NCBI GenBank assembly: GCA_023245725.1
Contig: JAHFJU010000006.1
Span: 1 to 32,562 of the forward strand
DNA: 32,562 nt
Direction of reading: 5' to 3'
DNA from: Candidatus Peregrinibacteria bacterium
Lineage (GTDB): Bacteria > Patescibacteriota > Gracilibacteria > UBA1369 > UM-FILTER-53-11
Below the pieces are notes generated by a model. It worked only from the letters and a program-made list of their open reading frames with translations, was not told the origin of the DNA and searched no databases. Position 1 is the first letter of the stretch. Each line of letters starts with the position of its first letter. The position numbers and the translations under genes were made by a program. Below are positions 2,142 through 20,968 of the stretch, in pieces.

Positions 2142-2924
2142 TTACGACATGTCTTCGAGAAGGTTTCGAAGATCTTGAGGGATGTCGAGTGTCATGTGAC
2201 TCTCGACAAGGTTTCGAAGCTGTTGCTGCGGGTCTGAATTTTCGTCGACGATCATCTCTACATAGAGCATGTACCCAGCGTGAAGCACCATCGCGTAGAC
2301 CTTTGGCATGCCGAGGTCGGTCGCGATGTAGATGTTCGCGTGATCTGAGACATGAAAACTGATGGTCTCGACAGGAGGGCTGATGTTGCCGATTGTCGCG
2401 TCTTTCAGCCACTCGTCGACCGAGAAAATGTTGTTCGGCACAGGAATCATCGTGAGATGATAGTTGTGTCCGCTCGGTCGAGTGATGAAGTACGCGGCGC
2501 ACCCGTGTGCGCCGCGCTCCCACTGAGTGAGCGGAATCGGCTGTGCGTTCAGCGTTCCGTATAGGGTCATGAATTTCATGGGTCGATTGCGATCGTTCTC
2601 GCACGTGAGCCGAATTCCTGCCAGCGGCATAGGCTCGCCCGCGTCGGGCTCGCCTTGAGCTTGCTGTTGAGGAATCCCAGCGTCGATTGAGCCGTCGGGC
2701 GAATTGTTGTTGACGTTGTTCTTGTTCGCCGCGTTTTGCGCGTTGGCGGGTTGCGTCGATGTGTTCTTCGCCGTAACAGTGCCTGCATCTGGGCAGGTGA
2801 GATTCGACTTGCAGACGAATTCGAGCGGCTCATTGCATCCGCTCACGAGAACGAGCGCGAGGCTCGTCGTGATTACGAGCATGAAGCTCATGAAAAAAAC
2901 GTTGATCCAAAAATCCTGTTTCAT
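2142..2924 (-). CDS. Hypothetical lipoprotein (260 aa)
   Basis: The ORF is in the track. Its N-terminus MKQDFWINVFFMSFMLVITTSLALVLVSGC has a hydrophobic core and an L-V-S-G-C lipobox, followed by a low-complexity N/Q/A linker and a globular C-terminal part. It sits 27 nt upstream of the M23-like gene, in the same frame and with the same high-GC composition. Confidence 0.75.
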   Translation of the reverse strand: MKQDFWINVFFMSFMLVITTSLALVLVSGCNEPLEFVCKSNLTCPDAGTVTAKNTSTQPANAQNAANKNNVNNNSPDGSIDAGIPQQQAQGEPDAGEPMPLAGIRLTCENDRNRPMKFMTLYGTLNAQPIPLTQWERGAHGCAAYFITRPSGHNYHLTMIPVPNNIFSVDEWLKDATIGNISPPVETISFHVSDHANIYIATDLGMPKVYAMVLHAGYMLYVEMIVDENSDPQQQLRNLVESHMTLDIPQDLRNLLEDMS

Positions 2925-3129: not shown

Positions 3130-3669
3130 ATGATCGGAAAAATTACTAATCGCAAGGGCTTCACTCTTATGGAGTTGCTCATTGTTATTGCGATTTTGGG
3201 CATTTTAGGTGTCGCTTTTGTTCCTAATATTTTGAAAGCTCCGGCTAAGGCTCGTGATGCGGTTCGTGTAAAGAAAGTTCAAGATTTGCATACTGCAATC
3301 GAGGCTTACTATGCTGAACATGGTTCGTTGCCAAAGATTGCTGCTGCTGATGCTGACGTTTACCCAGGACCTTGTGCAACCGATGCGCTTGCTACTGCTG
3401 TAGGAATGCAAAGTGCTCCGGTTGATCCAAATGGTTTAGGTAGTTGTGGTGATGGAGCGGATGCAAAAGGTCAATACCTTTACAATGTATATAAAGTTGG
3501 TGATGAAGTACATTACGTTGTTGCTGCGAAAACAGAAGTTCCAACGTCTGCAAATACAACTTTAACAACAGCTAATCTTAAAGCTGAATCTCAGGAAAAT
3601 AACTCAGTCCTTCTCCCTGTGCAAAGCCCTGCAAATGGTACCTACTTCATGGCAACTGGCCCAATTTGA
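3130..3669 (+). CDS. Type IV pilin / pseudopilin-like protein with a prepilin-type N-terminal cleavage/methylation motif
   Basis: MIGKITNRKG|FTLMELLIVIAILGILGVAFV shows a basic leader ending in Gly, then F at +1, E at +5 and a long hydrophobic alpha-1 helix, which is the classic class III signal. The globular part has two Cys (PGPC...GSC). It ends with TGA. Confidence 0.88.
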   Translation: MIGKITNRKGFTLMELLIVIAILGILGVAFVPNILKAPAKARDAVRVKKVQDLHTAIEAYYAEHGSLPKIAAADADVYPGPCATDALATAVGMQSAPVDPNGLGSCGDGADAKGQYLYNVYKVGDEVHYVVAAKTEVPTSANTTLTTANLKAESQENNSVLLPVQSPANGTYFMATGPI

Positions 3670-3710
3670 TCCTATAAAAGTTCGTTTTTTAGTGATTTCT
3701 CTGGAATTTA

Positions 3711-3740
3711 GCCGAGTCCCTCTGCAGGGCTCGGTTTTTT
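3711..3740 (+). terminator. Rho-independent terminator after the pilin-like gene
   Basis: gCCGAGtCCC-tctgca-GGGCTCGG forms an 8-bp stem with one bulged T, followed by TTTTTT. Confidence 0.7.
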
Positions 3741-9800: not shown

Positions 9801-12800
9801 GGCGATATTGTGCGCTACACGTTAACGCTTAAGAATACCGGAAATTCGCCACTCTCACGCGTTGCTGTAATCGATGTTGTTGCAAGTCAGGTTCTCGTTA
9901 AAAATGATTCTATTTCGTGTACGAATTGTGAGCATGGTGAAATGAAAATCGACGAGTTGAAAGATGATCCTGAGAGGCCGTTTATGTTTAGTAATATAAC
10001 GATTCCCGCTAATTCAAATCGTGTAATTACATATGAGGGAACTTACACTCAATCAGCAGATGAAAGCGAAAAAGTTATTATGGTTTTGAGTCCGAATTTT
10101 ACAGACTCAACTCACAGAATTCAGGGTGAACTTTCTGCCGACACTCTGCCAGATATTTCAATTAATAAAGAGGGGAATACCAGCGGTCAGGTTCAGTATT
10201 TTATATCTAAGAAAGAAAATGGTCGCGTGACTTATGTCGAAGAAAAATCCACTCTTGAGCCCGATAGCAATGTTGCTTCAATTTCAGCTTCAATTGCTGC
10301 GATGGCGAGTTCATTCGCTGGCGCTTCTACAGGTAATGAAAATTCTCTACCACCAGAGTTAACAAATAAGTTTAATGATTTCAAGAGTGGCGATAAAGAT
10401 GGCGATGGATTGCAAGACACACTCGATGACATCAACGGAAAATTAGAAAAAGTTGGCGATGGAGTTGAGAAGGCGATGAATAAATTAACGTGCGCGGCCG
10501 GATGTATTCCAATGCCACTTAACGTTGCGGCTTTTGCCCCCGGATTCTTTAGTGTAATGGGTTTGCCTGGGGCTTTCGATATTGGGCTTCCTGCATTTGG
10601 TTGGGGTGTTCCAAATCTAATTCCAACGTGGCCACCAAGCCCTCCGGCTCAATCTGCATTAGGTGGTCGTTTCTATATTTCGCCAACTTTAACTGGAGGT
10701 ATCGGTTTCGGTCTTTGTCTTGGTCCGTACGGAACTCCAAAGAATTGTTACGCATTTGGATTGAATCCTCTCGACCTTTTACCGGGAAATATTTGTGACA
10801 AAATTGGTGGAGGTCTAAACAAACTTATTGCGAAGGCTAACAGCGTGGCCGCGAAAGCGAATGAAGGAATTACCGCTGCTATAAGCCCTAAAAAAGGCAG
10901 TGTCTCTCGCGGTGGAACCGGCTTGGTGAGTTATTCAATGGGCAGTTACGAGCCTCCTGTCCCTCATAAAAAGAATTCACGTGTTCCCGGATTTCCAAGT
11001 TTTATTACCGATTGGTTCTCTGCACAGATCGAAGAATTTATAGACAAGGCTACCGATATGCCAGACATTTATGTGATTTATCCGAAAATCACGTCGATTG
11101 CACAGTCGTTTTTGCCAACTGAGGCGTTTAATCGAACAAGCGATCCTATTAATAATATTTTGTCTTGGGTAAACAGTATTCCTCTTATAGATATTCAGTC
11201 GAGCGAGGTAAATTTCAAAGTTCCGATCATCACTGAAAAAGAAATAATGAAGGTGAAAATCGACGCGCTTCAGTGGGTAGAAGATGAAAAATATGAGTTG
11301 GATAGATGGAAGCAAATGATGCTTTGTGGAATCCCGTTATCAGGCAATAAAGATGTTCAAAATAATCAGCGTGATCAGTTTATAAATGTTGATATTTGTC
11401 ACATCGTTGATTTGCAGATGAATCAACTGATTACAAGTATTGTTGAGAATACCAAAAGGCTCGATGAATGGGTTCTGTTCCCTAAAAAAGTTCTCCAATA
11501 CCGCACTGTTAAAACATATTACGTTAATCAAATTGTCGATTATTTAAATACTGTTATTGAGTTTGTAGGAGGTTGGGCAAAACGAAATACGGCAATCGTT
11601 GAGCGTTGGAGAAAATCAATTCGCGAAATGAAAGATGTAATTGAGCACTACAAATTAATTATAAAGTTGTCGATGGACGCAAACGCGTCGTGTGATTTGT
11701 GTAAGACTGAGAGGTACGGACTCGATGAACTTATTCTAAAGATTTTTGCAGCAATTCCTAAGCCGCCGGTTATTCCATTGCCGCGACTTCCTGATTTTGT
11801 AATTGATGTTTCAAAGATTCAAGCTGGAGTTACAATTCAGTGGCCCGACATTACATTCGCTCCAGAGCCGCTTATAATCCCGAAAATTCCACGCATTCAT
11901 TTGGGTGTGAATCTTACGATTCCAAACTTTAAGTTAATGCTGCCGGCAATTCCGCTTTTGCCTGCTCCTCCCGATTTGCCCGATTTGCCGCCATTACCAC
12001 CATTGAAATTGGGTAAATTGCCAGACCTTCCTCCTGCGCCAACGTTACCAGATTTGCCTGCAAGTCTACAGGCGACATTGCGTTTGTTAAGCCAACTCTA
12101 CCGAATTTATTGTATTATTAAATTAGGATTTACTCCGGTAGATGAGGTGTTTCTCAAAACCCGAATTGAGCAAATTACCGCGCGTGGGCTTACTCCTGTT
12201 TTGCCAATCGATATGTTATTGGCATTTCCGGGGCCGTCGATTAAGGTTACATATATCGATCAAATCGTGGTGACCGCATTCTTGAATTTGCGCACCGATA
12301 TGACGTTTATTCAAAAGGCGGTTGAGGCCGTTGCGGCAAAATCCAATAAATTTACAAACGAATTTGTAAGCAAGATTAATAAATTCACCGAGAATCTTGC
12401 AAAGACGATCGAGCAGTACACATCGCCAACGTTCAATGTAAATGTTAACGCTAATGGTGATACTTCTGTTAATGGCAAAAAGGTAAATTATGTTTCTCCT
12501 GCTGAAAATAATGTTCCTCAGTCTGTTAAAGATGCTCTTAATAAGAAAGATAAATACGGAGATGTTCTCTCAAAAGTATTTGGTGAAAATATAAATAATG
12601 TTGATGATGCACATTCAAAGCTCGCAGGAATATTCAGCAATCTTAGCAAAGAGCAGCGGGAATATCAGGCCAAGCTCGACAAAATTCCAGAGAAATACGT
12701 TCTAACCGCCGAACCAGTCACTCTTGAAGAAGCGAAAATTTCTCTAAAAAATGATGGGGTAAATTCAAATATTGATGACGTTCGTTTGTTAGCAGAAGAG

Positions 12801-15800
12801 TCTCCGACATTAAAACAAATCGTCGCGTATCGCGATGAACTTTCTAAATATGCGCAAGGCACATCTTCTGATACGTTGTCTTTGAGTCAATTAATTGCTG
12901 AGTCATCTCCTTCAACTCCTCAATCACCATTTTCAAAATTAACCGCTTCGCTCAATACTCCTCAAATTTCTGACGAACCAGAAAAAGTAAGCAGTATGGT
13001 AAATAATTTAGACGGAAATAAAATTGCTCAAGTACCGCCTGTTCCGGGTGCAGACATGGCTCAGGGAAGCGATGCTCTTGATGGTTCCGTAAATAATGTT
13101 GGTATTTTTTATCAGGATTCTCATGGTGAAAATCGTCGTCTTCTTAACTACACACTTGAGGCAGATTCAAGCAGTTTCTTAGAAACGCTCGATGCTGACC
13201 ACGATGGTGATAATGAAAAAATATATTCATACGGTCGAAACGTATTTATAAAAGAAAACTATTCTCCTGCGCAAAATGGACATGCTCGTGAGGGTTATGC
13301 TCGTCGTATATTTAGCGGATACGATGTTGAAAAAACTACAGTTTACGACTTGCTCAAAGGCGCTTCTGCACCACGCGATGTTCGTGTAGATTCCGAATCG
13401 GCGCACGATTCTACTATTTCGTTTGTAGTTCCAGAAGTTCAAAAATCAAACATTGTAGGCTTCGATGTGACTACTCATTCTACCGTTGATGACGCTCAAA
13501 TTAATGGATTAAGAACACCAAAAGCTGTTAACCGATATACCGTAAATGCTGCTGAAAAAACAAGTGAAGCTGTAAATGCGCAAAACAATGTTGTGGCTGT
13601 CGTTGAATCGGTTGAAGGCTTAGTAAAAGCAAAAGGCGAGCCTGTCGGTAACGGAACACAGCTAGAAAAAGGAATCTTCGTCGATGTCGGCAAAGGTGCT
13701 TCTGCTGTAATTAAATTTAACGATGGTACGCGAATTGAAGCCGATGAAAATAGCGGATTTACTATTCCAGAGGGGCCTGCGTTTGAGCTAACAAAAGGCA
13801 AGGCTACTCTTACATTGAGTGAAGCGCCTGACTTATTGAAAACGAGTTCTGCGGTTACCGTAAGCGATGGTTCGCTCACTGTAATAATGGCTGGTGGTAG
13901 TTCGGCCGTTGTTACGTCTGGCGGTTCTCTTACTATTCCTGCTCTTGAAGTTCCAAAAACTATTCTTGCGCGTGTTACCGATAATGCAATTATTAACGGT
14001 GGTACACGTGAATATATTTCAAAGGCTGACGGACAGTTCCATCTAAATGCAGGAGATAAAATTCATGCTTTATCTACTGCGCATGTTAAGTGGGCTATCG
14101 ATGACAACGATCAGCATACATACACATTGAAAAATGCGATTTTGAGTGTTCCTGAGTCGAGTGTAGATGGATTAAACATTGCTATTGAAGACGGTACAAT
14201 TGAAATAATCCATTCAACAACTATTGGAGTTACCGCTATTAGAACGGGTTCTGCGTTGCTCGATGGAGAAAAAGTTGAAGTGCAAACTGGTGCAGTGGTT
14301 GTTGAATCGCGCGTTGGTGAACTTGAAAATGGCACGCTTAACGACACCGATTCTCGCCGTTCTGTTTTGTACGCGCATCAAACATTGTCGGTGAATTCGT
14401 TCGATTCTCTCGATGGAATTTCTCTCAAAATTTATGCTGATCCTGCGTTTTATTATGCGCGTGTTACTAGTATTATGGCCGATGGAAGCCAATCTGTAAG
14501 CTCTGCTACGACATTGCTTGCGCCGCAGCCATGTGGCGATAATACGATTCCATATGCAAACGCTGGCGCGAGCGAATTTACAGTTGCAGTAGGAAAAGAG
14601 CTAACAATTGACGCGTCTCGTTCGTTCGACAGCAACGGAAAAATTACCGGGTATCAGCTCGATACCGATTTATCGGTAGATAGTAATCATGATGGAGATC
14701 CTCAAAACGATGCCGATCAAACTCATGGCGCCGATCAAACTTCGTTTGCAGTTGGCCCATATTCCGATGCTAAAGACATTCGCATGATGTTGACTGTTTT
14801 TGACGAGGCTCATAATGCCGGCAAGCAATCTATTACTATTAATGTTGTGTCTCCGACAATTATTCTCGATAAGGAGCCTCTTTCAAATGGTGATATTTCT
14901 GGCCACATAGAGCCAAAAGAGGCGAATGTGCCAATTGTTATTGCTCGTCTGCGAAAAGACGGCGGTGCCGGTTGGGAGCTAATTAAAACTTCTTCTGCAA
15001 ATCAAAACGGTCAGTATCTCACCGATAATAATGGCGAGTTTAGAATTACGGATTCAGTACAAAAAGAAGGATTGATTCTATATGTAGCTGATAAAGAAGT
15101 CGCTTTAGTAAACCAGAAAACTGGAAGAATAACTATTATTGACCAGAGTTATGAGGTGAGTGCCTTGCCTGCCATAGCCGGTAAGGTTCCAACACGTCTT
15201 TCAGTGTTTAAAAAAGGTGATTCTGCAGATGCCAAACCATACACGTTTGTTTATTTTGTTCCAGACGTTAATACCGACGCGACTATAGATTCTCGTGACA
15301 CTGAGTATACAATTGGCGGCGTTTCATTTATGAGCGGGGTTCACGTTAAACCGCTAGCGGAAGCCGATAATCAAGGTATTTCATTTAAAGTCCTCTCAGG
15401 TGCCGACCCTGTAAATCCGGGGGGAGTTGTAATTCGTGATAATGCAAATAAGCAAATTGCTCTAGTCGATGTGAATGGCGATGTACTGCTAAACAAGGAC
15501 ACTCTTTCACTTCGAGTAAAAGAGATTTCTGATTCTGCCAAATCGCAAGACCCGGTAGTGTTTGAACTCCTTTTGCAAAATAAACCTATTGCAGAAATAT
15601 TTATTGCTACAAAAAATCTTGGTAAAGACGATGTGAATATTATTAAAACGCCGACTCTGCCGCTGCGCCCAAGGCCTATAAATAAGCCAAATACTTCTAC
15701 GGCAAATTCTCAAAATTCAAGGCAGCAACCTGTCGAACAACCATTCGCCGATATTCAAAAAGGCGATCCGTTCAATGAGATTATTAAAAAATTATTTGTT

Positions 15801-16715
15801 CGTGGAATTGTTGCAGGTTACGCAACAGGTACTCAAGGCGAATTTGAGTTCAGGCCTGATCAGCAAATAGCCCGTTCAGAGTTCACTCAAATTGTTTTGA
15901 AGATGCTTTGTATCGTTCCAAGACCAGAGGCATATCGCTTGCCTACGCCATTTTACGACGTTGTTGACCCTCGGCTTTGGTTCTATGCAGTTTTGAAAGA
16001 AGGCAATATTAGAGGATTTATTAAAGGATATGTTGGCGAGGCTCGACGAGATAAAACCACTGGTAATGTACTGACTCCATTTAAACCAGCAAGTTCTATA
16101 ACTCGTGCAGAGGCTGTCACTGTTGTTATTGCCGCGCTCGATGAAGAAAAAATTATTGATTTGAGTCGTGCTGATCTAAGAGCTCATGCAGGTGAGCAGT
16201 GGTATGACCCATACCTTCGTGTTGCCGTAAACCTTACGCCGTACCTTACGCGCGCCGAAGATGCCGCACTACAGCCATTTTTATTGACTCGCGATGAGGC
16301 GTTGCGTCCGACCGAATTAATTACTCGTCGCGATTTTGCTTTGATCGCTGACAGAGTTTTGCTACTGAGAGATTGTGGCGCGCCTGCTGTTTCGCAAGCT
16401 GATGAACAGGTTGCACCAGCCGATAACGGCCAAAATAATCCGTCTGATGTTTCGGCTAATGGCCAAAGTCAGGTTCCTGATAATGCGCAGCAAAACAACG
16501 AAAACGCTAATAATGTAGCGCAAAACGAAGTAATTCCTGTTGATAATAAAGAAGGAATATTTATTGTCGATACCGGTTGCGCGAATGAATGTCCGTGCCG
16601 TGTTCGTATTGCTCCAGCCGCCGACATGTCTTCTGGCGATACGATTTTCGCAGCGATTGCAGGGCCGAATGGAGTGCCTATTTATGCAAAATCTAACGAA
16701 GAAAAATACCCTTAA
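3873..16715 (+). CDS. Giant secreted, SLH-anchored mosaic surface protein (4,280 aa), a putative adhesin or S-layer-associated fibre
   Basis: It is an uninterrupted 12,843-nt ORF with a TTG start 14 nt after AAGGAGG. The signal peptide reads MKTIFKKIGVGLTLIVFMSVTFGSPIVQG. I recognised Ig-like, FG-GAP/VCBS, DUF11-like, PKD-like and SLH motifs, listed as separate features below. All antisense ORFs inside it are short and low-complexity. Confidence 0.93.
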   Translation: MKTIFKKIGVGLTLIVFMSVTFGSPIVQGYSNPDNYDLVALLVEQGMYQDVVNYSGLVGSVQSNKISVTTNTSRIDRYAMDVQRTLPGTRVVIIQVDRYEKPENVRTVLQRLYFDGDPQADGALATLKGIVAIGEVPLPVVNKGGNRFISLFPYTDLENSAYVFNDKTGDFELNANVSDPRVEVWHGVIRPPVSTQTEDGRKLLAAYLDKNHLYHSGDQAFSKFDSRLFFQDYYNEKKQINKTAYTSYLQFINHQDDISYMRYTKKLFNELSGSVDSELADAGQQSADLRTQLQAAGVPFDDSSPSSGVELPGSGGEVDKNAIPDIMTKIAKMSDSLMKKYNEIFSKYPSLVNDFVRYTGRYYVPDTSTDDVTDYKTNADSSVNLIAEKDEYNRVYLRLVNDMIERKIDEISAQLQLDVSLSNANVNVKSVSGVGGVRVEPYSTSGSVSDAVQFVIDRLKTAISTLPLGDIRDNTIKAAKTAFNLVFFSPETPADGDRLSYSKNYLNYSPKVGINDAAYFSKFFPTYPLDDDTGTKAANINGVQWDDINSVEQCSLYRGSLGAGEYSNLVEANRANNINTAQESAADNLEDHGGCYYDGTNLYAHPDTTSGYKQCYPDDSRTPVLDLAGSIATDAVPFTGYDDYRACLNFRPEYEMYKERIAVDQIHEKLDDRSQDRKGRDRDKILETVRPMIDGGLDIPFDGDPSPDQQVLFKSKSPRYSVTLGDVLRSTEVGWSYINARDSHYGDWRYLFEKMITAYSDGRNHIVHVTNTVLTNAAVVISISKNDEKHFSSIRVHKEPTKPTLIAEGDGFVTKDLPVDEPRYITFQDKRKNPVSIVYPDAFSVKSFDDLTAKLHELEAKLNALSIDQSVCNGCLTGLISAAAEQVSEADHETIINRANQFKLADAISWKDLDIDSRHVYIAENYLDSAHTAFVNPEKEKGYEISYFNGEGDSQGYDLGFNSELLASATPLVEVEKPYADDPNNPFDDPPPQQQGGYDLFTWNPPPVSPWYERVKEWYADLKNNTSFTVSFGEEKQKNSENQAKELEAEKQKIKDEANAFVSSPEDADKIVLSRVKKIRITADSTAAVVGKKVTFGVDLLDENDALVSTEFNRVDVTVDNGATVMDNDEDPTADGTQRTVIGGHADVSFIAPVNPAAVTVTVKMNSQPDIGKTQQFAILKSATIALGIAQTAIVADGRGLIPVTLSAVDDKGSLLANVNGTVHIALSDDSLARATKEVQLVRGRAQFTVRAGVKKGELIINAATSNLDPAAATIKFLPGPAVKLVLVKNADVLIANPGESIDVTAQIFDAYNNLIDTNTGTPISFVLNDSAVDIAELTSLTANTVDGLATVRVLPKGKSGSISVTAKTRGLRDAILTLNVVKKFGTGSLSRINPESLVTALLGIPAGNVSAPKAFGSSMVFAGKNEAVTTLTTSPKQYSKVFEVSDKGALTSDPDRVSVSFVPGNHLAFLMRDTRYGIDLAKIYVITKKDGQFALTDEQSPEKLSDGIYLHATSSDPSYVFDKSRGSLRISKSDEERIEVQTNGFVKVYDQNFTVRPKKSDYLTLEILEGQTVVAEVYIVQRFNQDVRTYSNTGDISNDAAGVYVQPFALPGTFFFEPSFSGNTTSASLGMALKDRSQVLDGAGSPGFGYNSFEDSLDSMGVGFTQDNKFALLFSAGEIFGEANRQYMSDATIVLGDPTVRLNNAPHEDNFSIDVGTLLYSATSDVRGLLSFDVNSDGFEDLLVVQQDGLIKYIQNGGGVNNFTDRGTLLNIKNGIQDFTKVDINGDGQQDIVVAAKNGCTVDSTCIDIFLNNRGSFTRQNVTFDQTEKITAIKASDMNGDNKVDLVFTDTAGDISLLLNHGDSFANHRVVIGNVGLKTEPGKNVIANTLVRYAGILERNPDGPQNETEAKNQQFYMPVELSVANPDSHANDSGIDAVNPILKISQDFMYADAPISSLKTSTKYAQDVNGDVLRNGDIVRYTLTLKNTGNSPLSRVAVIDVVASQVLVKNDSISCTNCEHGEMKIDELKDDPERPFMFSNITIPANSNRVITYEGTYTQSADESEKVIMVLSPNFTDSTHRIQGELSADTLPDISINKEGNTSGQVQYFISKKENGRVTYVEEKSTLEPDSNVASISASIAAMASSFAGASTGNENSLPPELTNKFNDFKSGDKDGDGLQDTLDDINGKLEKVGDGVEKAMNKLTCAAGCIPMPLNVAAFAPGFFSVMGLPGAFDIGLPAFGWGVPNLIPTWPPSPPAQSALGGRFYISPTLTGGIGFGLCLGPYGTPKNCYAFGLNPLDLLPGNICDKIGGGLNKLIAKANSVAAKANEGITAAISPKKGSVSRGGTGLVSYSMGSYEPPVPHKKNSRVPGFPSFITDWFSAQIEEFIDKATDMPDIYVIYPKITSIAQSFLPTEAFNRTSDPINNILSWVNSIPLIDIQSSEVNFKVPIITEKEIMKVKIDALQWVEDEKYELDRWKQMMLCGIPLSGNKDVQNNQRDQFINVDICHIVDLQMNQLITSIVENTKRLDEWVLFPKKVLQYRTVKTYYVNQIVDYLNTVIEFVGGWAKRNTAIVERWRKSIREMKDVIEHYKLIIKLSMDANASCDLCKTERYGLDELILKIFAAIPKPPVIPLPRLPDFVIDVSKIQAGVTIQWPDITFAPEPLIIPKIPRIHLGVNLTIPNFKLMLPAIPLLPAPPDLPDLPPLPPLKLGKLPDLPPAPTLPDLPASLQATLRLLSQLYRIYCIIKLGFTPVDEVFLKTRIEQITARGLTPVLPIDMLLAFPGPSIKVTYIDQIVVTAFLNLRTDMTFIQKAVEAVAAKSNKFTNEFVSKINKFTENLAKTIEQYTSPTFNVNVNANGDTSVNGKKVNYVSPAENNVPQSVKDALNKKDKYGDVLSKVFGENINNVDDAHSKLAGIFSNLSKEQREYQAKLDKIPEKYVLTAEPVTLEEAKISLKNDGVNSNIDDVRLLAEESPTLKQIVAYRDELSKYAQGTSSDTLSLSQLIAESSPSTPQSPFSKLTASLNTPQISDEPEKVSSMVNNLDGNKIAQVPPVPGADMAQGSDALDGSVNNVGIFYQDSHGENRRLLNYTLEADSSSFLETLDADHDGDNEKIYSYGRNVFIKENYSPAQNGHAREGYARRIFSGYDVEKTTVYDLLKGASAPRDVRVDSESAHDSTISFVVPEVQKSNIVGFDVTTHSTVDDAQINGLRTPKAVNRYTVNAAEKTSEAVNAQNNVVAVVESVEGLVKAKGEPVGNGTQLEKGIFVDVGKGASAVIKFNDGTRIEADENSGFTIPEGPAFELTKGKATLTLSEAPDLLKTSSAVTVSDGSLTVIMAGGSSAVVTSGGSLTIPALEVPKTILARVTDNAIINGGTREYISKADGQFHLNAGDKIHALSTAHVKWAIDDNDQHTYTLKNAILSVPESSVDGLNIAIEDGTIEIIHSTTIGVTAIRTGSALLDGEKVEVQTGAVVVESRVGELENGTLNDTDSRRSVLYAHQTLSVNSFDSLDGISLKIYADPAFYYARVTSIMADGSQSVSSATTLLAPQPCGDNTIPYANAGASEFTVAVGKELTIDASRSFDSNGKITGYQLDTDLSVDSNHDGDPQNDADQTHGADQTSFAVGPYSDAKDIRMMLTVFDEAHNAGKQSITINVVSPTIILDKEPLSNGDISGHIEPKEANVPIVIARLRKDGGAGWELIKTSSANQNGQYLTDNNGEFRITDSVQKEGLILYVADKEVALVNQKTGRITIIDQSYEVSALPAIAGKVPTRLSVFKKGDSADAKPYTFVYFVPDVNTDATIDSRDTEYTIGGVSFMSGVHVKPLAEADNQGISFKVLSGADPVNPGGVVIRDNANKQIALVDVNGDVLLNKDTLSLRVKEISDSAKSQDPVVFELLLQNKPIAEIFIATKNLGKDDVNIIKTPTLPLRPRPINKPNTSTANSQNSRQQPVEQPFADIQKGDPFNEIIKKLFVRGIVAGYATGTQGEFEFRPDQQIARSEFTQIVLKMLCIVPRPEAYRLPTPFYDVVDPRLWFYAVLKEGNIRGFIKGYVGEARRDKTTGNVLTPFKPASSITRAEAVTVVIAALDEEKIIDLSRADLRAHAGEQWYDPYLRVAVNLTPYLTRAEDAALQPFLLTRDEALRPTELITRRDFALIADRVLLLRDCGAPAVSQADEQVAPADNGQNNPSDVSANGQSQVPDNAQQNNENANNVAQNEVIPVDNKEGIFIVDTGCANECPCRVRIAPAADMSSGDTIFAAIAGPNGVPIYAKSNEEKYP
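7101..8020 (+). other. Three tandem bacterial Ig-like (Big/invasin-type) modules within the giant protein
   Basis: Three segments of about 95-100 aa each have the same pattern: ITADSTAAVVGKKVTFGVDLLDENDALV...VTVTVKM; IAQTAIVADGRGLIPVTLSAVDDKGSLLANVNGTVHIAL...GELIINAAT; and KLVLVKNADVLIANPGESIDVTAQIFDAYNNLI...GSISVTAKT. Confidence 0.65.
9060..9470 (+). other. FG-GAP/VCBS-type (integrin-alpha-like) repeats within the giant protein
   Basis: Three Ca-binding-like repeats are present: FDVNSDGFEDLLVVQQDG, VDINGDGQQDIVVAAKNG and ASDMNGDNKVDLVFTDTAGD. Confidence 0.7.
9774..10049 (+). other. DUF11-like 'conserved repeat' beta-sandwich module within the giant protein
   Basis: DVNGDVLRNGDIVRYTLTLKNTGNSPLSRVAVIDVV...ITIPANSNRVITYEGTY matches the G-D-x-(V/I)-x-Y-x-(I/L)-x-(V/L)-x-N-x-G signature. 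Confidence 0.55.
10491..10815 (+). other. Gly/Pro/aromatic-rich hydrophobic segment bracketed by Cys, within the giant protein
   Basis: The segment reads CAAGCIPMPLNVAAFAPGFFSVMGLPGAFDIGLPAFGWGVPNLIPTWPPSPPAQSALGGRFYISPTLTGGIGFGLCLGPYGTPKNCYAFGLNPLDLLPGNICDKIGGG. It has almost no charged residues over about 100 aa, in an otherwise highly charged protein. Confidence 0.6.
11757..12066 (+). other. Proline-rich PxxP / PDLP tract within the giant protein
   Basis: The tract reads PKPPVIPLPRLPDF...IIPKIPRIHLG...LPAIPLLPAPPDLPDLPPLPPLKLGKLPDLPPAPTLPDLPASL. It includes a direct 9-nt duplication, ccgatttgc ccgatttgc, at about 11974..11992. Confidence 0.75.
14532..14856 (+). other. PKD-like domain within the giant protein
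   Basis: CGDNTIPYANAGASEFTVAVGKELTIDASRSFDSNGKITGYQLDTD...MMLTVFDEAHNAGKQSITINVVSP shows the A-x-A-G...V-x-(F/L)-D-(A/G)-S-x-S-x-D...(Y/W)-x-(W/L)-D...V-x-D pattern typical of PKD domains. Confidence 0.6.
15744..16370 (+). other. Three tandem S-layer homology (SLH) domains, a cell-wall anchoring module, within the giant protein
   Basis: The three domains are FADIQKGDPFNEIIKKLFVRGIVAGYATGTQGEFEFRPDQQIARSEFTQIVLKML; FYDVVDPRLWFYAVLKEGNIRGFIKGYVG...FKPASSITRAEAVTVVIAAL; and a weaker third, WYDPYLRVAV...LRPTELITRRDFALIADRVL. Confidence 0.8.
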
Positions 16716-16738: not shown

Positions 16739-17419
16739 ATGAAACTAAAAAATATAAAAATTAAAACAGTGTTTAACGCCGTGCTTATAACATTAACAGT
16801 CGCTTTAATGTGTGTAGAAGTGCAGCTTGTTTTTAAAGGAGGATTTGAGAGGGTTTTTGCGAGCGATCCAGCACCAGTGGCTGACGCTCCAGCGGTGCCC
16901 GATGCCGCTGCTGGTCAACCCGCTGCTGCAGATTCTCCTCCAACCACAATGTCGAAAGATATTACTGGTGAAGAACAGCTTCAATGTGCGACCATCATGC
17001 GTCCGTATATGGAAGATAAGCGAAAAGAGTTTGCGGATTTTATTAATGAACACTTTAAATCTAAGGCTCCTACTTCTGAATTAATTCCTGTTGCGATTGA
17101 GCGGCTACGTCAGTATCGCGATGAAATTCGTGCGCGGCTTAATGAATTCGGCCCTCATGATGGCCGTAATTTAGAGGTTTTGGCCTCTGAAAGCGGTGCA
17201 TGTCGCGATGTGGTAAATGAAAATTATAAAATTTCTAAAGATCTATTGCAGAATCATATTCAAGAAAATTCGTACGCTAAAAAATCGACACGATTGCTCG
17301 ATAAGTACAAAGAAATAAATTCTCAGCTCGATAAAATGAACTTTGACGTCGCACAGATGTACGCAAATTTTAGTATTTTTTCACAAAAATTGCCGTGTTA
17401 CGCGCGGTCATGCCAATAA
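16739..17419 (+). CDS. Small secreted or N-terminally anchored Cys-containing protein P1 (226 aa), hypothetical
   Basis: MKLKNIKIKTVFNAVLITLTVALMCVEVQLVFKGG is a basic leader plus a hydrophobic helix. It is followed by an Ala/Pro-rich linker and a helical region, and the protein ends ...KLPCYARSCQ. There are four Cys beyond the anchor. Confidence 0.75.
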   Translation: MKLKNIKIKTVFNAVLITLTVALMCVEVQLVFKGGFERVFASDPAPVADAPAVPDAAAGQPAAADSPPTTMSKDITGEEQLQCATIMRPYMEDKRKEFADFINEHFKSKAPTSELIPVAIERLRQYRDEIRARLNEFGPHDGRNLEVLASESGACRDVVNENYKISKDLLQNHIQENSYAKKSTRLLDKYKEINSQLDKMNFDVAQMYANFSIFSQKLPCYARSCQ

Positions 17420-17424
17420 CTAAA

Positions 17425-18174
17425 ATGAAAATAAAAATTTCAAAAACCGGAATTTACCTAAGCGTCTTTGTCGCTACTTTTACCGTTGTAGCGCTTACCT
17501 TTGCGTATATGCCTGTTCAAGTAGCAAAAGGAGGTGATCCTATAAACTCAGCAGATGTTTGTAAAAAGGCCGATGAATTTAGAAAAAATAATCGCGACTT
17601 TAATCAATATACTGCTTTAGCGGCTTTAGATAATCCTATCGATAAAATTACTGATTGTTTTCATGAAACGGTAAATAAAATGTTCAACAAAAAAATAAAA
17701 GAAATGGTGAAACTAGGGAAAACCGGTAAAGAAGACGATCTAAATAAACTCATTACTTTAATTACCAGACCCGTTGAAAAAGGCATCAATATGCCATGTT
17801 CATCAGATACAAATAACCTTTCTACTTACTGTCTCTCAGAAGATCTCGTTGTCGAATTCGCTCGATTTAGAAAAGGTATGAATGATTCCCGTGAACAATT
17901 AAAGGCAAATGCTGCGGCGCAAATTGAAAAAGTAAATTCCGATTTCGGCGCAAACATAAATAGAATAGATTCCGAAGTAAAAATTGCGCAGACATCGATC
18001 GATCAAGGGTTGTCGGCATACAACGAGTTGCAGTTCGCGTTGCCGCTTCACATGAAGTACAAAAAAATAATTGAGGAACTCGAAGATTACCGCGATGCGC
18101 TACGAAAAATCCGATATAGTGTCGATTTGTACCCAGTAACATTTATTGATGTAACGACCGCTGCTTGTAATTAG
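17425..18174 (+). CDS. Small secreted or N-terminally anchored Cys-containing protein P2 (249 aa from the ATG at 17425), hypothetical
   Basis: The track ORF starts at 17395. I prefer the ATG at 17425, 5 nt after the P1 stop, because it gives MKIKISKTGIYLSVFVATFTVVALTFAYMPVQVAKGG, which parallels the P1 and P3 leaders. The protein ends ...DVTTAACN. Confidence 0.72.
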   Translation: MKIKISKTGIYLSVFVATFTVVALTFAYMPVQVAKGGDPINSADVCKKADEFRKNNRDFNQYTALAALDNPIDKITDCFHETVNKMFNKKIKEMVKLGKTGKEDDLNKLITLITRPVEKGINMPCSSDTNNLSTYCLSEDLVVEFARFRKGMNDSREQLKANAAAQIEKVNSDFGANINRIDSEVKIAQTSIDQGLSAYNELQFALPLHMKYKKIIEELEDYRDALRKIRYSVDLYPVTFIDVTTAACN

Positions 18175-18177
18175 TAT

Positions 18178-19767
18178 ATGCGACTTTTTTCTATTAAAAC
18201 TGTAATAAAAATAAAAACTGCGCTTGTCGTAGCGCTCATTTGTGCAATTCTGTCGCCTTCGTTTAGCGATATTGTTGATGGTCGAGTGCAAATCGCAAAT
18301 GCCGCCGATGAAGGAATCGCAATCGATGTTCTTGGCACGGCAACCGATTTAATATCGGGAAACTTTTTTCAATTTGACGATAATATTGGGCAAAATCTTT
18401 ACACAACAATTTATCAACGAGTTAAAAGCGAAGGCTCAAATGCAGCAATCACTAAAACAACTTCTCGCCGAAAACTATCAAAGGCAGAGCTTTATACTAT
18501 TATTCCTGGGTCGAACATTACTGGAATTATGGCGCAACCAGACCCGCGTGCGCCGCTACGAGATGACCAAATCCGTTCTCGTCGCGATGACCTGATTCGC
18601 GATCTGGCCGATGAAAAAGATCTCGGCGATTTTGAGTCGCTAAACAAAATGCAGGTTGAGTCGACCGAACTTTTCGCAAACGGCGATGAGTCAGATTCTG
18701 GCTTCGATTTGCTCGTAGATCTCGATGTAATGCAGGCGATATTGTTCAATAAGGATATTCAAAGTATGTCGGGGCAGGGAGGTGGTGGAGGGCATTCAGG
18801 TGGCGCAAACCCGCAAGATCAAGCTCAAAATAATGCTAATTCTCCTGCTCAAAATAACGCCGACAACAATAATTCGTCTGCACCTAAAACTCCAGGGGCT
18901 CAAGCTCCTGTCGATGCTTCTAAAATTAAATGTCCTACAAATACAGGGTTAAATGACGAAATTGAATCGGAGCGGACTAAAGATCGTGCAGCTGGCGCAG
19001 TACAGTTAGACGAAAATGGCGTGAATCCTGATGATGCAAAAAAGCCGATAGACGATACTCCGAAGCCATTGGTTGCCGCTCATGCTGACGATTGGCATCG
19101 CGAACTTCCGTGTAGTAACGTATTTTGTTTAAAACTAGAATTGAAATATATAACTGAAAGTTCGTTTACGGTAAGTGATAACTGCGTCATGTGCCACATT
19201 CAGAAAATAAACGATTCGTTCAAAAAATTGCTTAATCATAATTTGGTTCCAAATAAAGTTACTGGTAATTTGCTCGAAGGGCCAAAGTGTAAAGACGCGC
19301 TCTATAATTCGAATTGGGCAATTGTGAATTTTATTTTTATTGGTCAGCCGATTCTTACTCCGCCAAACGATGACTTAATTATCAAGGGCGATATTTGGGC
19401 TAACATGAAGCTTTTCTGGGAACGCTATGTCGATGCTCCAAAAAAATGTGATGCTGGAGAGTCGTGTCGAATTTCAACCGCTGAGCAGGTTTTGTCTCAA
19501 ACTAAACCGAACGCGACATTCGATCAAACTACCGATTCAATGGCTCAAGAAGATCGCGCGATAAAAGATAATAAACTTAAAGAATATCGCGCAGATCAGT
19601 TGAAACGGCAGGTAGAAGCGCAAGGCGGTCAGTACCGGGTAATCATGCAAGAAATGTCGACGATGAACGATTACTTTAATAATTATATGAAAACGTTCGA
19701 TGACTTAACCTCTGATCCCGCAAAATCACCGTGCGGAGTACTAGCAAATAAACAATATTGCCAATAA
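18178..19767 (+). CDS. Secreted or anchored Cys-rich protein P3 (529 aa), hypothetical
   Basis: The ATG is 3 nt after the P2 stop. The protein has the leader MRLFSIKTVIKIKTALVVALICAILSPSF, an acidic N-terminal domain, a GQGGGGGHSGG...QNNA low-complexity linker and a C-terminal domain with 10 Cys (for example LPCSNVFC and DNCVMCH). It ends ...SPCGVLANKQYCQ. Confidence 0.8.
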   Translation: MRLFSIKTVIKIKTALVVALICAILSPSFSDIVDGRVQIANAADEGIAIDVLGTATDLISGNFFQFDDNIGQNLYTTIYQRVKSEGSNAAITKTTSRRKLSKAELYTIIPGSNITGIMAQPDPRAPLRDDQIRSRRDDLIRDLADEKDLGDFESLNKMQVESTELFANGDESDSGFDLLVDLDVMQAILFNKDIQSMSGQGGGGGHSGGANPQDQAQNNANSPAQNNADNNNSSAPKTPGAQAPVDASKIKCPTNTGLNDEIESERTKDRAAGAVQLDENGVNPDDAKKPIDDTPKPLVAAHADDWHRELPCSNVFCLKLELKYITESSFTVSDNCVMCHIQKINDSFKKLLNHNLVPNKVTGNLLEGPKCKDALYNSNWAIVNFIFIGQPILTPPNDDLIIKGDIWANMKLFWERYVDAPKKCDAGESCRISTAEQVLSQTKPNATFDQTTDSMAQEDRAIKDNKLKEYRADQLKRQVEAQGGQYRVIMQEMSTMNDYFNNYMKTFDDLTSDPAKSPCGVLANKQYCQ

Positions 19768-19768
19768 C

Positions 19769-20968
19769 ATGAAGCGAATTTTAGCTCTTATCCTTGTAGT
19801 AATTGTGCTCTCGACCTCAATGTCGAGTACGCTTTTTGCGTCATATTCATTTGAGAATTACCAGCTTTTAGGCGAGGCTCCATCGTCGAAAAACGATGCG
19901 AAATTTACCGAATGTTTCGCCGATTTGGTCGATTTTCTTTATATAACAATTGGTGCAGGTTTCACAAAACCAGGTAGTGATTTTTCAGATTATTGGAGGG
20001 ATTTCTTTTTGTACACTTCTCACTATGCAGATGTTTATGGAGTTGAACGTCAGCTAAATTCCGCGCGTTATTCTGTAATCTCAACGTATTTAAAATGTCA
20101 GACGACTCGTTTTAAACAGGTGAAGTCTCAGTACTATTCACTCGAAGCCGAGTTGTATTTTGTTCGACATTTTATTAGTACGGATCCTCTTTCTGAAGGA
20201 TTCCCAGATGTCATTACCGTTGATGAAAAACGAAAACAGTTTCAACAGGATTTCTTTGCTTATATGAAATCAAAATCTCCAGATACCGACGATGAAGATA
20301 CGCAAATTGCTGTATTCGGAGGTTACTTTGACAGGTTCATGGCGAAGTACAAAAACAAGGTAAATGAGTATAGAGATAACAGTAATTCAAGCGATCCTGC
20401 ATGGGGACGATTGAAAGAAAAATGGGAAAATCTCATGAAAACAATTAAAGGTTTTGGTTCTTCTGTTGAGGGATTAGGTGGCGATGCATCTGACCTCGGA
20501 AAAGCGCTTGTGCCAAACACCGAAACAATTTCATGGAACTCATTAATGAGCCGCCTCGATGCCTGTGCAGAAACAAGTTCAGAGAGTTATTGCGCAAGCG
20601 ATGCTGTGAAATATTTACAAACTCACGATGCTCTTAAAGAGGCTAAAGATAAACTTAAATCGATATTTGAATCTAAGAGAAAAAATTCTGTTTCATTCGA
20701 TGAAGTGCAGTTTGCTGTCGATACGTCGAATCAGCCTTCAACCGACATTATGTCTGAGGCAGAAATGTTAAATCGTTATGAAGTTTTGTACGGTACAATC
20801 GGAACTTCCGGCCTGAAACAAATGATGCAATCAACCGATACGCTTCTTGCAACTTTGAAAGATGGTCGTGGTGAAGGTCCATTTGGCCCAAAAATTCCGG
20901 GTAGCCTTAAGCCGCTTGCAAAGATTGCCGAGTGTGCAAATAACGTCGAAGACAAAGAGTGCAAGTAA
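19769..20968 (+). CDS. Secreted Cys-containing protein P4 (399 aa), hypothetical
   Basis: The ATG is 1 nt after the P3 stop. The signal peptide reads MKRILALILVVIVLSTSMSSTLFA. The protein is mostly charged and helical with 6 Cys, and ends ...AECANNVEDKECK. Confidence 0.8.
   Translation: MKRILALILVVIVLSTSMSSTLFASYSFENYQLLGEAPSSKNDAKFTECFADLVDFLYITIGAGFTKPGSDFSDYWRDFFLYTSHYADVYGVERQLNSARYSVISTYLKCQTTRFKQVKSQYYSLEAELYFVRHFISTDPLSEGFPDVITVDEKRKQFQQDFFAYMKSKSPDTDDEDTQIAVFGGYFDRFMAKYKNKVNEYRDNSNSSDPAWGRLKEKWENLMKTIKGFGSSVEGLGGDASDLGKALVPNTETISWNSLMSRLDACAETSSESYCASDAVKYLQTHDALKEAKDKLKSIFESKRKNSVSFDEVQFAVDTSNQPSTDIMSEAEMLNRYEVLYGTIGTSGLKQMMQSTDTLLATLKDGRGEGPFGPKIPGSLKPLAKIAECANNVEDKECK

Follow-up and report, generated by a model that had tools for sequence, protein, structure and literature searches.

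In the eukaryotic extracellular matrix, helical hetero-oligomers are stapled between chains, as by the C-terminal disulfide of laminin beta and gamma and the disulfide rings of fibrinogen. The OmcA/OmcB/MOMP outer membrane complex of Chlamydia and the CotY/ExsY spore layers of Bacillus are disulfide cross-linked envelope assemblies. Other reference points are the minor-pilin and adhesin modules of type IV pilus tips (fimU-pilVWXY1E with PilY1; GspH-K of the T2SS) and the sortase-assembled pili of Gram-positive bacteria. In the same or a neighbouring lineage, Ca. Peribacter riflensis has large Cys-rich extracellular proteins, and the relevant passages on Peribacteria mention many exported Cys-rich proteins together with one disulfide-formation protein (PMC4736985). 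For Vampirococcus, a related CPR bacterium, a role of type IV pili in cell attachment has been proposed (passages of PMC8080830). Attachment to other cells has been inferred for the large surface proteins of both organisms, as for the module described here, and FG-GAP annotations of such proteins are noted too (PMC4736985, PMC8080830). Unlike the present analysis, those passages treat large Cys-rich proteins in general; no mention is made in them of the families P1 to P4, of the module or of a cross-protein Cys network.

The locus analysed here comes from the genome of an uncultured member of the Peregrinibacteria; "the window" denotes the whole stretch of 32,562 nucleotides. It holds a lineage-specific surface module of Peregrinibacteria with a conserved gene order, in which a prepilin-like gene is followed by the gene for a giant SLH-anchored protein and by four small genes, P1 to P4 (Table 1). 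The order giant-P1-P2-P3-P4 is identical across Peregrinibacteria/Peribacteria MAGs, with a giant homologue upstream of P1 in 99 loci and all four small genes present in 93 of 138 sequences. From giant to P4, consecutive genes of the window lie 23, 5, 3 and 1 nt apart. The module is adjoined by an M23 protein with MopE-type metal-binding Cys motifs. The organisms are groundwater anaerobes, a setting with no obvious source of oxidising power, which counts against disulfide stapling.

Table 1 Features of the surface module, with positions in the window
Feature	Position	Strand	Basis
Prepilin-type, pilin-like gene, 179 aa; class III signal KGFTLMELLIVIAI	3130..3669	+	Pfam PF07963 N_methyl
Terminator-like hairpin between pilin and giant genes; 10-bp stem, T run	3710..3736	+	Consensus scan only
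Giant secreted surface protein, 4,280 aa	3873..16715	+	Pfam matches
Conserved hydrophobic stretch of the giant (residues 2207-2308), rich in Gly, Pro and Phe	10491..10796	+	Homologue alignment
Giant SLH region, presumed cell-wall anchor	15741..16382	+	PF00395
Giant C-terminal motif C4236-x3-C4240-x-C4242 (GCANECPC)	16578..16598	+	Homologue alignment
P1, 226 aa, secreted, helical; ends LPCYARSCQ; codons of C220 (17396-17398) and C225 (17411-17413)	16739..17419	+	Translation, alignment
P2, 249 aa from ATG (alternative GTG start at 17395, 259 aa); ends VTTAACN; codon of C258 (18166-18168)	17425..18174	+	Translation, alignments
P3, 529 aa; ends SPCGVLANKQYCQ; codons of C371 (19288-19290), C519 (19732-19734) and C528 (19759-19761)	18178..19767	+	Translation, alignment
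P4, 399 aa; ends AECANNVEDKECK; codons of C389 (20933-20935) and C398 (20960-20962)	19769..20968	+	Translation, alignment

As in pilus-tip modules, the first gene is of the prepilin type, the second encodes an adhesin-like protein of very large size with FG-GAP repeats of the beta-propeller type, and several small exported proteins are co-encoded. The C-terminal Cys pairs of P1-P4 are also reminiscent of the pilin D-region. Unlike pilus-tip proteins, however, P1-P4 carry Sec-type rather than class III signals, as the original prediction had recognised in noting that the latter are absent, and they lack the N_methyl domain. Type IV pilin membership of the four proteins was rejected, even though a genuine prepilin-type gene stands at the head of their module. 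Further differences are that P2 is an all-helical bundle without Foldseek similarity to pilins, that the Cys pattern speaks for inter-chain bonds rather than a D-loop, and that the giant has SLH repeats, which suggest wall anchoring over a pilus tip. With sortase-assembled pili, the module would share covalent linkage of secreted subunits, on cells that lack an outer membrane, and a division of labour into major, minor and adhesin-type components. P1-P4 differ in lacking an LPXTG or pilin motif and would use thiol chemistry instead of isopeptide bonds, and the module contains no sortase.

The N-termini of P1-P4 have the K/R-rich start, hydrophobic core and AxA-like site of Sec signal peptides (cleavage was called by eye and with a regular expression), which places their tails outside the cytoplasm. 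An IKIKT leader shared by P1-P3 and a VQ..GG motif after the anchor had been put forward as a common sorting signal. Neither is conserved, and the proposal was not supported: IKIK occurs in only 6 of 110 P1 and 1 of 113 P3 homologues, and VQ..GG is confined among homologues to the window's own P1 and P2. The residues concerned are part of ordinary Sec-type signal peptides, in their n- and c-regions, and the IKIKT likeness in the DNA (71% over 35 nt) is A-rich low complexity. Searches of Pfam, NCBIfam and the PDB returned no relatives for any of the four proteins. Comparison by hhalign of P1 with P2, and of both with P4, supports a distant paralogy of P1 and P2 (94%, E 1.5e-7), one part of a suggested kinship among P1-P3; P1 and P4 matched weakly (60%), and no relationship was detected between P2 and P4. 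AlphaFold2 modelled P2 as a helical bundle (pLDDT 88.8) whose final 14 residues, including C258, form a coil (pLDDT ~59), and Foldseek found no structural relatives of this model. The AlphaFold2 model of P3 has a C-terminal helix of 64 residues, followed by the Cys tail.

Translation confirmed that four consecutive proteins end in Cys-X-stop, that they contain 4, 5, 10 and 6 Cys past the signal peptide, and that P1, P3 and P4 have a second Cys 5, 9 and 9 residues upstream, all as originally described. C83, C155 and C225 are invariant in P1, and C220 is clade-specific. P2, likewise with an odd number (three) of invariant Cys, has a C135-C146 loop and the penultimate C258. The six core Cys of P3 (252, 312, 317, 336, 339 and 371) include a conserved CxxC, and C519 and C528 lie in its tail. 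P4 has invariant C49, C110 and C398, and in about two thirds of lineages C389. In the window, P1-P4 together contain 25 Cys and the giant 26; the module-wide parity of Cys fails to close, which counts against the stapling model.

Cys-X-stop endings are rare among the other genes of related loci (3 of 262, 1.1%), which contain 1.1% Cys overall and have a Cys among the final six residues in 17 of 262 cases. The chance of four such endings in succession is ~2e-8, so the pattern is not accidental. Among homologues, the penultimate Cys of P2 is found in 120 of 123 sequences. P1-C225 is kept in 112 of 116, chiefly as C-X3-stop, and P4-C398 in 105 of 109, in the form [KR]QC followed by 0-5 residues; ~97% of P1 and P4 homologues have a Cys in the final 6-7 residues. 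In P3, C519 is present in 78 and C528 in 30 of 124 homologues, the terminal Cys being limited to one clade. Exact Cys-X-stop is thus a family hallmark of P2 only. The predicted conservation of the penultimate Cys was therefore exact in P2, held in P1 and P4 for a Cys near the end at varying spacing, and failed for P3; as judged from the alignments, the hallmark of P1, P2 and P4 is a Cys at the extreme C-terminus.

To follow the tail Cys through the phylum, we used 74-76 non-redundant Peregrinibacteria loci and an NJ tree of 146 branches, built with the tails left out, on which event counts assume parsimony. Three states only, with 3, 5 or 7 tail Cys, cover 70 of the 76 loci; in the commonest states, P1, P2 and P4 have one tail Cys each and no nearby partner in their own chain. 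Over 100 bootstrap trees, P3-C519 and P4-C389 changed together in 4-7 independent events, P1-C220 and P3-C528 in 3-4, and P1-C225 and P4-C398 in 1-2, and the paired events fell on shared branches in all 100 trees. On the NJ tree, each of the six branches with a P4-C389 change also has a P3-C519 change, and the other two pairs changed on the same branch in 4/4 and 2/2 cases, respectively. Naive hypergeometric values for the three pairs are 6e-10, 6e-8 and 9e-5. Point substitutions at homologous positions separate close relatives (e.g., L050/L054 and L044/L037). The fourth pair, P2-C258 and P3-C371, changed in one event: C258V occurs in a single lineage (L057, identical to L116), which is also the sole lineage with P3 C371Y, and position 371 is Cys in 173 of 173 further homologues. 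Support for this pair comes from one lineage and that for P1-C225/P4-C398 from one or two; at one exceptional locus (L061), the P3 tail Cys is present and its P4 partner absent. When the 63 variable Cys columns were all scanned as an unbiased control, the cross-protein pairs ranked beside obvious within-chain pairs (P3 CxxC 336/339 and P3 424/430), and variable Cys of the giant co-changed solely among themselves. Matched gain and loss of Cys in different proteins is the pattern expected for inter-subunit disulfides, not for within-chain loops. It supports the covalent intermolecular linkage that had been suggested for the terminal Cys.

We consider it reasonably probable that P1-P4 are subunits of one extracellular hetero-oligomer whose C-termini are stapled by inter-chain disulfides. 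The covarying Cys, a signal read from sequence, point to a previously undescribed complex with such bonds. The odd numbers of invariant Cys in P1 and P2, the flexible P2 end that holds C258, the Cys tail beyond the long P3 helix and the Cys-rich exported proteins of Peribacteria add to the case. The mainly alpha-helical proteins would be exported by Sec, and their extreme C-termini would meet outside the cell. The core bonds would be P1-C225/P4-C398 and P2-C258/P3-C371. In about two thirds of lineages, P3-C519/P4-C389 would be a third bond that joins both core pairs into one covalent tetramer, and a fourth, P1-C220/P3-C528, would close a ring in clades that include the window. We infer from their co-evolution both that the Cys pairs are actual disulfides and which Cys are partners; the same co-changes could also reflect bonding of P4-C389 to P4-C398 within the chain, with P1-C225 passed to P3-C519.

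Like laminin and fibrinogen, such a complex would consist of distinct helical chains, secreted separately and assembled side by side, with the locking Cys at chain ends, one or few residues from the terminus. The likeness does not extend to sequence or fold: P1-P4 are bacterial, compact bundles of 200-530 aa rather than long coiled coils, and their number of staples differs among lineages. As in the Chlamydia and Bacillus assemblies, intermolecular disulfides would hold bacterial surface proteins, replacing or adding to other anchors. Those assemblies, however, are extended lattices of Cys-rich proteins without homology to P1-P4, in which the few, precisely placed and pairwise co-evolving Cys imply a defined complex of fixed stoichiometry.

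Within-chain loops in the style of the pilin D-region (P1 220-225, P3 519-528, P4 389-398), stabilising or protecting each tail, are an unlikely alternative. Two tail Cys do lie 5-9 residues apart in three proteins of the window and its clade, and P4 has both in about two thirds of loci. Yet just one tail Cys is present in P1 at 49 of the 76 non-redundant loci and in P3 at 29, while 20 loci combine one tail Cys in P4 with none in P3. P2 never has a second one, and the second Cys comes and goes with a Cys of another protein, not with its supposed same-chain partner. The terminal loop originally envisaged is therefore no family feature, the second Cys being absent from about two thirds of lineages. 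It also seems improbable to us that the tail Cys are cooperating free thiols, either metal or cluster ligands at a subunit junction or a redox or catalytic site. Tail Cys always come in odd numbers, which leaves at least one thiol without a tail partner, and the anoxic habitat, the CxxC of P3 and the Cys motifs of the neighbouring M23 protein fit this explanation. The count, however, steps strictly by two, unlike the evolution of a site with 3-4 ligands, and obvious disulfide pairs inside the giant and P3 behave identically. P2-C258 and core P3-C371 were lost jointly, as is typical for a bonded pair, and no conserved His, Asp or Cys-rich ligand motif surrounds the tails.

We give equally little credence to the terminal Cys as a processing, sorting or attachment signal (CaaX-type lipidation, sortase or exosortase) by which each protein on its own would become attached to lipid, to the cell wall or to the CxxxCxC tail of the giant. 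Many P1 homologues end in C-[ILV]-x-x-stop, a superficial resemblance to CaaX, and the three Cys of the invariant motif close to the giant C-terminus equal in number the small proteins with an invariant terminal Cys (3 of 4). Against this, Sec-type signal peptides place the tails beyond the cytoplasm, the Cys of P1 and P4 is followed by a variable 0 to 6 residues, and an LPXTG, hydrophobic or charged tail is absent. The module has no conserved gene for a processing enzyme; in 70 loci the gene that follows it is uvrA. Two loci (L048 and L119) lack P1-C225 and P4-C398 and retain all three giant Cys, and the small proteins covary with one another, not with the giant. That the tails lack functional meaning and simply result from common ancestry and a phylum-wide Cys-rich secretome is very improbable, and the statistics on conservation and covariation already contradict it. 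P1 and P2 are indeed paralogous, and Peribacteria proteomes are described, in the passages concerned, as unusually Cys-rich at 1.67% (PMC4736985). But the background genes reach just 1.1%, both for overall Cys and for Cys-X-stop endings, the terminal Cys is retained at 20-30% identity across three unrelated or barely related families, and the coordinated changes recur.

The stapled hetero-oligomer would form part of a surface module that, judging by gene neighbourhood alone, probably serves attachment to host or other cells; the association of P1-P4 with the giant and the pilin is likewise inferred. A hairpin resembling a terminator between the pilin and giant genes counts against the pilus link. 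Pfam domains of the giant are FG-GAP repeats, Ig-like domains, DUF11 and SLH. The SLH match (PF00395, residues 3957-4004) scores 25.4 bits (cutoff 20.8), and two more SLH-like repeats were read by eye. Cys 2207, 2211, 2282, 2292 and 2308 frame the hydrophobic stretch and are kept in 47-49 of 49 homologues. C4236, C4240 and C4242 are invariant (49/49), so covariation carries no information on the originally suggested link of the small proteins to the CANECPC motif. The pilin-like gene, whose N_methyl match passes the Pfam cutoff (E 8.5e-8), is the immediate 5' neighbour of the giant gene in the window. It also lies upstream of the giant in six further loci (L139, L141, L143, L153, L154 and L159; 34-46% identity), in L139 with two further genes in between.

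In the window, which belongs to a contig of a Candidatus Peregrinibacteria-type (CPR) bacterium, four small secreted proteins, P1-P4, are encoded 3' of a giant SLH surface protein, and this arrangement is conserved. Pattern scans with the P3 alignment yielded loci from genomes (72) and from metagenomes (65), across which the gene order giant-P1-P2-P3-P4 is syntenic. All four small genes were present in 93 of 138 sequences (the 137 loci plus the window), and 76 of these 93 were non-redundant. The intergenic gaps from the giant through to P4 in the window are 23, 5, 3 and 1 nt. All named homologues come from MAGs of Peregrinibacteria, Peribacteria or 'Gracilibacteria', and the P3 family comprises 576 clusters at 50% identity among 1.8 billion representatives. 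Downstream of the module, the sole conserved neighbour is uvrA on the opposite strand; a disulfide-forming or processing enzyme, sought among the neighbours, and a sortase gene were not found as conserved companions. Searches of the window for tRNAs and Rfam families gave no matches.

Features of the window discussed in the text, with their positions
Feature	Positions	Strand	Remarks
Peptidase_M23 gene	1-2114	-	runs off the window
ORF with lipobox-like motif	2142-2924	-	260 aa
Prepilin-type gene	3130-3669	+	PF07963 N_methyl
Terminator-like hairpin	3710-3736
Giant	3873-16715	+	4,280 aa; FG-GAP, Ig-like, DUF11, SLH
Gly/Pro/Phe-rich segment of giant	10491-10796		residues 2207-2308
C-x3-C-x-C of giant	16578-16598		residues 4236-4242
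P1	16739-17419	+
P2	17425-18174	+
P3	18178-19767	+
CxxCH of P3	19183-19197		residues 336-340
P4	19769-20968	+
DAC...SYC pair of P4	20564-20593		residues 266/275
Stretch past P4	20969-22029
First terminator-like site past P4	21940-21957

The shared C-terminal Cys holds up as a genuine feature, both conserved and significant. All four C-termini match those originally noted, the Cys counts are correct, and the Cys-X-stop ending does not reflect chance: in a background check, 3 of 262 other genes in the related loci ended in this way and 17 carried a Cys within the last six residues, the overall Cys content of these genes being 1.1%. P2-C258 (numbering by residue of the window protein) is Cys in 120/123 sequences and always forms Cys-X-stop. 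P1-C225 is retained in 112/116, mostly as C-X3-stop, and P4-C398 in 105/109, as '[KR]QC' followed by 0-5 residues. For the P3 tail, the corresponding numbers are 78 (C519) and 30 (C528) of 124. P1 and P2 each possess exactly three invariant Cys (C83, C155 and C225; C135, C146 and C258, respectively).

The N-terminal motifs noted alongside the Cys endings are incidental. IKIK, the core of the supposed leader, occurs in just 6/110 P1 and 1/113 P3 homologues, and VQ..GG is confined to P1 and P2 of the window itself. As the origin of IKIKT, gene conversion or a repeat at the DNA level was likewise rejected, as the similarity consists of A-rich low complexity alone. By eye and by regular expression, the aligned N-termini of P1-P4 are ordinary Sec-type signal peptides, with a K/R-rich start, a hydrophobic stretch and an AxA-like site.

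To follow the tail Cys across proteins, seven positions were scored in each locus (P1-225, P1-220, P2-258, P3-519, P3-528, P4-389 and P4-398, in this order), and three states covered 70 of the 76 non-redundant loci. Changes were mapped by Fitch parsimony on a neighbor-joining tree of 74 loci (146 branches), built from the four cores after trimming of the tails. Here, the three-Cys state has five or more independent origins, and loci in the seven-Cys state lie in three basal groups.

Tail Cys states (1, Cys present) across the seven scored positions
State	Loci	Tail Cys	Remarks
1010001	20	3
1011011	29	5
1111111	21	7	state of the window

The changes fall on shared branches. P4-C389 changes on six branches, and on all six P3-C519 changes too; for P1-C220 and P3-528 the four branches with changes coincide, as do the two (out of 146) for P1-C225 and P4-C398. 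Across 100 bootstrap trees, the three pairs showed 4-7, 3-4 and 1-2 events, respectively, always on shared branches. Close relatives differ by point substitutions at homologous positions (C/A in P3 and C/G in P4 between L050 and L054). Among the informative exceptions, one locus (L028) has independently a second P1 Cys and, in P3, one that resembles C528, and two others (L048, L119) lack both P1-C225 and P4-C398. P3-C371, otherwise invariant (173/173 in the wider set), is replaced (C to Y) in one single lineage, the same one in which P2-C258 is replaced (C to V; L057 and the identical L116). When all 63 variable Cys columns were scanned without bias, the cross-protein pairs ranked beside the obvious within-chain pairs P3 336/339 and P3 424/430, and the variable Cys of the giant co-changed among themselves only. 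These within-chain pairs and the self-contained giant provide an internal control, by which the two-by-two signature behaves as that of disulfides would. Four extra Cys columns (P2 near residues 59 and 164; P3 near 414 and 421) arise jointly on two branches, and the lineages concerned may have further disulfides there, either intrachain or interchain.

This strong pairwise co-evolution of Cys across proteins is the pattern that bonds in a putative interchain-disulfide hetero-oligomer would leave, and it backs the original prediction of disulfides between molecules. As the only tail Cys of the three-Cys state sit in three different proteins, an interchain bond would be required whatever the partner assignment. 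Judged from sequence, bonds between the chains are somewhat favoured. Beyond the co-evolution itself, we infer a mechanism in which P1-P4 would be exported and joined in one hetero-oligomer with converging C-terminal tails, the P2 tail reaching the P3 core near C371. P1-225/P4-398 and P2-258/P3-371 would be the basic staples, P3-519/P4-389 would link both pairs, and P1-220/P3-528 would close the ring in the type found in the window. With no outer membrane, covalent stapling would hold the soluble secreted subunits together.

Several established identities were weighed against this hetero-oligomer, and P1-P4 show none of the features that define type IV pilins, sortase substrates, CaaX targets or c-type cytochromes. 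The resemblance to pilins lay in a possible terminal disulfide loop similar to the D-region, but two tail Cys per chain are not conserved: the second is present in 22/76 (P1), 23/76 (P3) and 52/76 (P4) non-redundant loci and never in P2. Moreover, P1-P4 have neither a class III signal (G↓F/M-x-x-x-E) nor a PF07963 match, and in place of the pilin alpha-beta fold with its long N-terminal alpha1 helix, the AlphaFold2 model of P2 (pLDDT 88.8, pTM 0.73) is an all-helical bundle (helices 76-104, 108-117, 139-170 and 178-240). In this model, C135 and C146 form a loop on a small hairpin, and the final 14 residues, including C258, are low-confidence coil. Cys close to the C-terminus could also suggest a sortase substrate or Gram-positive pilin, or a CaaX prenylation target. 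A sortase signal would join an LPXTG-like motif to a hydrophobic stretch and a positively charged tail, but the tails stop 0-6 residues past the Cys and have no hydrophobic segment, which speaks against the former; the latter, by definition cytosolic and with a C-aliphatic-aliphatic-X end, is at odds with this same spacing, with the export signals, and with the second position past the Cys, which is mostly T, K or Q. The CxxCH of P3 resembles a c-type cytochrome haem site, but of 174 homologues, 105 have His at position 340 and 66 have Glu, and P3 has no cytochrome Pfam match. Because the His is not conserved and a few sequences have lost the two Cys (336/339) together, the CxxC is more likely a disulfide or redox pair.

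Searches for relatives of P1-P4 gave only sub-threshold noise in Pfam and NCBIfam, and unspecific matches to coiled-coil or helical proteins (lamin, GCN4, ApoA-I, gp41) in profile searches against PDB sequences. Foldseek with the P2 model retrieved no relative from the PDB (best E 0.17, none a pilin) or from viral models. The P3 model, in which a 64-residue C-terminal helix precedes the Cys tail, was of too low quality (pLDDT 55) to be used in fold searching. Of the distant paralogy proposed for P1-P3, the P1/P2 relationship was supported (hhalign 94%, E 1.5e-7, 131 columns); a comparison of P1 with P4 was weak (60%). The P1/P2 alignment stops 22 and 20 columns short of the respective C-termini, and this near-equal distance of ~20 columns makes the terminal Cys of the two proteins equivalent. 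ORFs that seem to fuse P3 and P4 (L009, 1688-4471; L056, 10010-13219) were discarded as Rosetta-stone evidence as they are bridged by masked N runs. In L056, the P3 tail seems to be continued, ahead of the N run and without a frame change, by what is left of the P4 signal peptide. Elsewhere in P4, a pair of Cys, in 'RNxC' and 'YxxC' at alignment columns 1057 and 1363, occurs in ~90% of homologues; the window protein lacks it and has the DAC...SYC pair at another place instead.

The giant combines a signal peptide with FG-GAP and Ig-like regions and SLH repeats, the latter marking it as an SLH-anchored surface protein (PF00395, 25.4 bits versus a Pfam gathering cutoff of 20.8, residues 3957-4004). 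Its best-conserved part is a hydrophobic segment rich in Gly, Pro and Phe ('GFFSVMGLPGAFDIGLPAFGWGVP...GGRFYISPTLTGG') within a frame of five near-invariant Cys; this segment matched no known domain and superficially resembles an internal fusion loop or membrane-active segment. A C-x3-C-x-C motif 40 residues before the end is invariant in 49/49 homologues. It holds an odd number of Cys, three, and counting Cys to find a partner in the giant was abandoned when the parity failed to close. Hmmsearch and hhalign revealed no homology between P1-P4 and the giant, and no covariation was found between the giant and the small proteins in a scan that has no power at the relevant giant Cys, as these are invariant. 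Conservation of the giant seems far lower in its N-terminal half than across the final 2,100 residues, and homologues reach 5,300-5,550 aa in six loci (L144, L146, L148, L152, L156, L158) compared to 3,800-4,400 aa in the window's relatives.

Unlike P1-P4, the gene upstream of the giant carries a class III signal of the N_methyl type. A mid-region scan with a narrower alignment reached this upstream region and gave 22 loci that include the giant 5' end; a single-protein scan with the giant N-terminus gave no matches, walking by exact DNA matches gained 2.9 kb only, and the broad alignment was too diverse. The prepilin-type gene (KGFTLxELLIVIAI, 34-46% identity) adjoins the 5' side of the giant in the window, L141, L143, L153, L154 and L159, and is separated from it by two genes in L139, making it syntenic in at least seven diverse loci. 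It seems truncated in L149 and L152 and is absent from L151 and L156, among loci that reach the giant 5' end. A strong terminator-like hairpin follows it in the window. Given its position upstream of the giant in several loci, the module is the pilin gene, the giant and then P1-P4, in this order.

Our confidence in any specific function is much lower than in the interchain bonds. Taking gene neighbourhood alone, a role in attachment, possibly tied to a type IV pilus, is plausible. A more far-reaching and rather improbable reading is that the six-gene module would be a new, Peregrinibacteria-specific surface organelle, in which a ring of the P1-P4 heterotetramer with up to four interchain disulfides would tie a fibre of type IV pilin or pseudopilin to a wall-anchored adhesin of 4,000-5,500 residues for seizing host cells, the number of staples being tuned between lineages. 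The closest working analogies are laminin and fibrinogen (helical matrix proteins stapled by interchain disulfides), the disulfide cross-linked bacterial envelopes of Chlamydia and spore coats, and pilus-tip adhesin modules. What is new lies in the components and the module rather than in the chemistry, which is familiar. Passages of two earlier studies describe large Cys-rich exported proteins in Peribacteria (PMC4736985) and the giant surface proteins of a related predatory CPR bacterium (PMC8080830), and these passages make no mention of the P1-P4 families or the module.

Peregrinibacteria and other CPR are uncultured and probably live in attachment to other cells; a large share of their small genomes encodes surface proteins of unknown function. 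The present analysis defines a lineage-wide conserved module with four protein families that have no known relatives, and makes a concrete prediction that is cheap to test, a Cys-to-Cys bonding map across four proteins. If true, it would open a surface machine of the CPR to structural study for the first time, and would demonstrate that Cys covariation between proteins in metagenomes can map subunit contacts without a cultured organism.

The flanks of the window show some further features. In 70 other loci, uvrA (minus strand) comes after P4; the window differs, with ~1 kb past P4 that holds no convincing gene, just short overlapping ORFs, and with its first terminator-like site near the end of this stretch. 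The left end has 57-60% GC compared to ~40% elsewhere in the window, owing to the long Pro/Ala-rich linkers of the Peptidase_M23 gene, whose product also has a signal peptide and MopE-type 'CDGxDNNC' Cys repeats. The ORF beside it has a lipobox-like 'LVSGC' and no Pfam match, and a similar pair of lipoprotein and M23 genes lies upstream of the pilin gene in L141.
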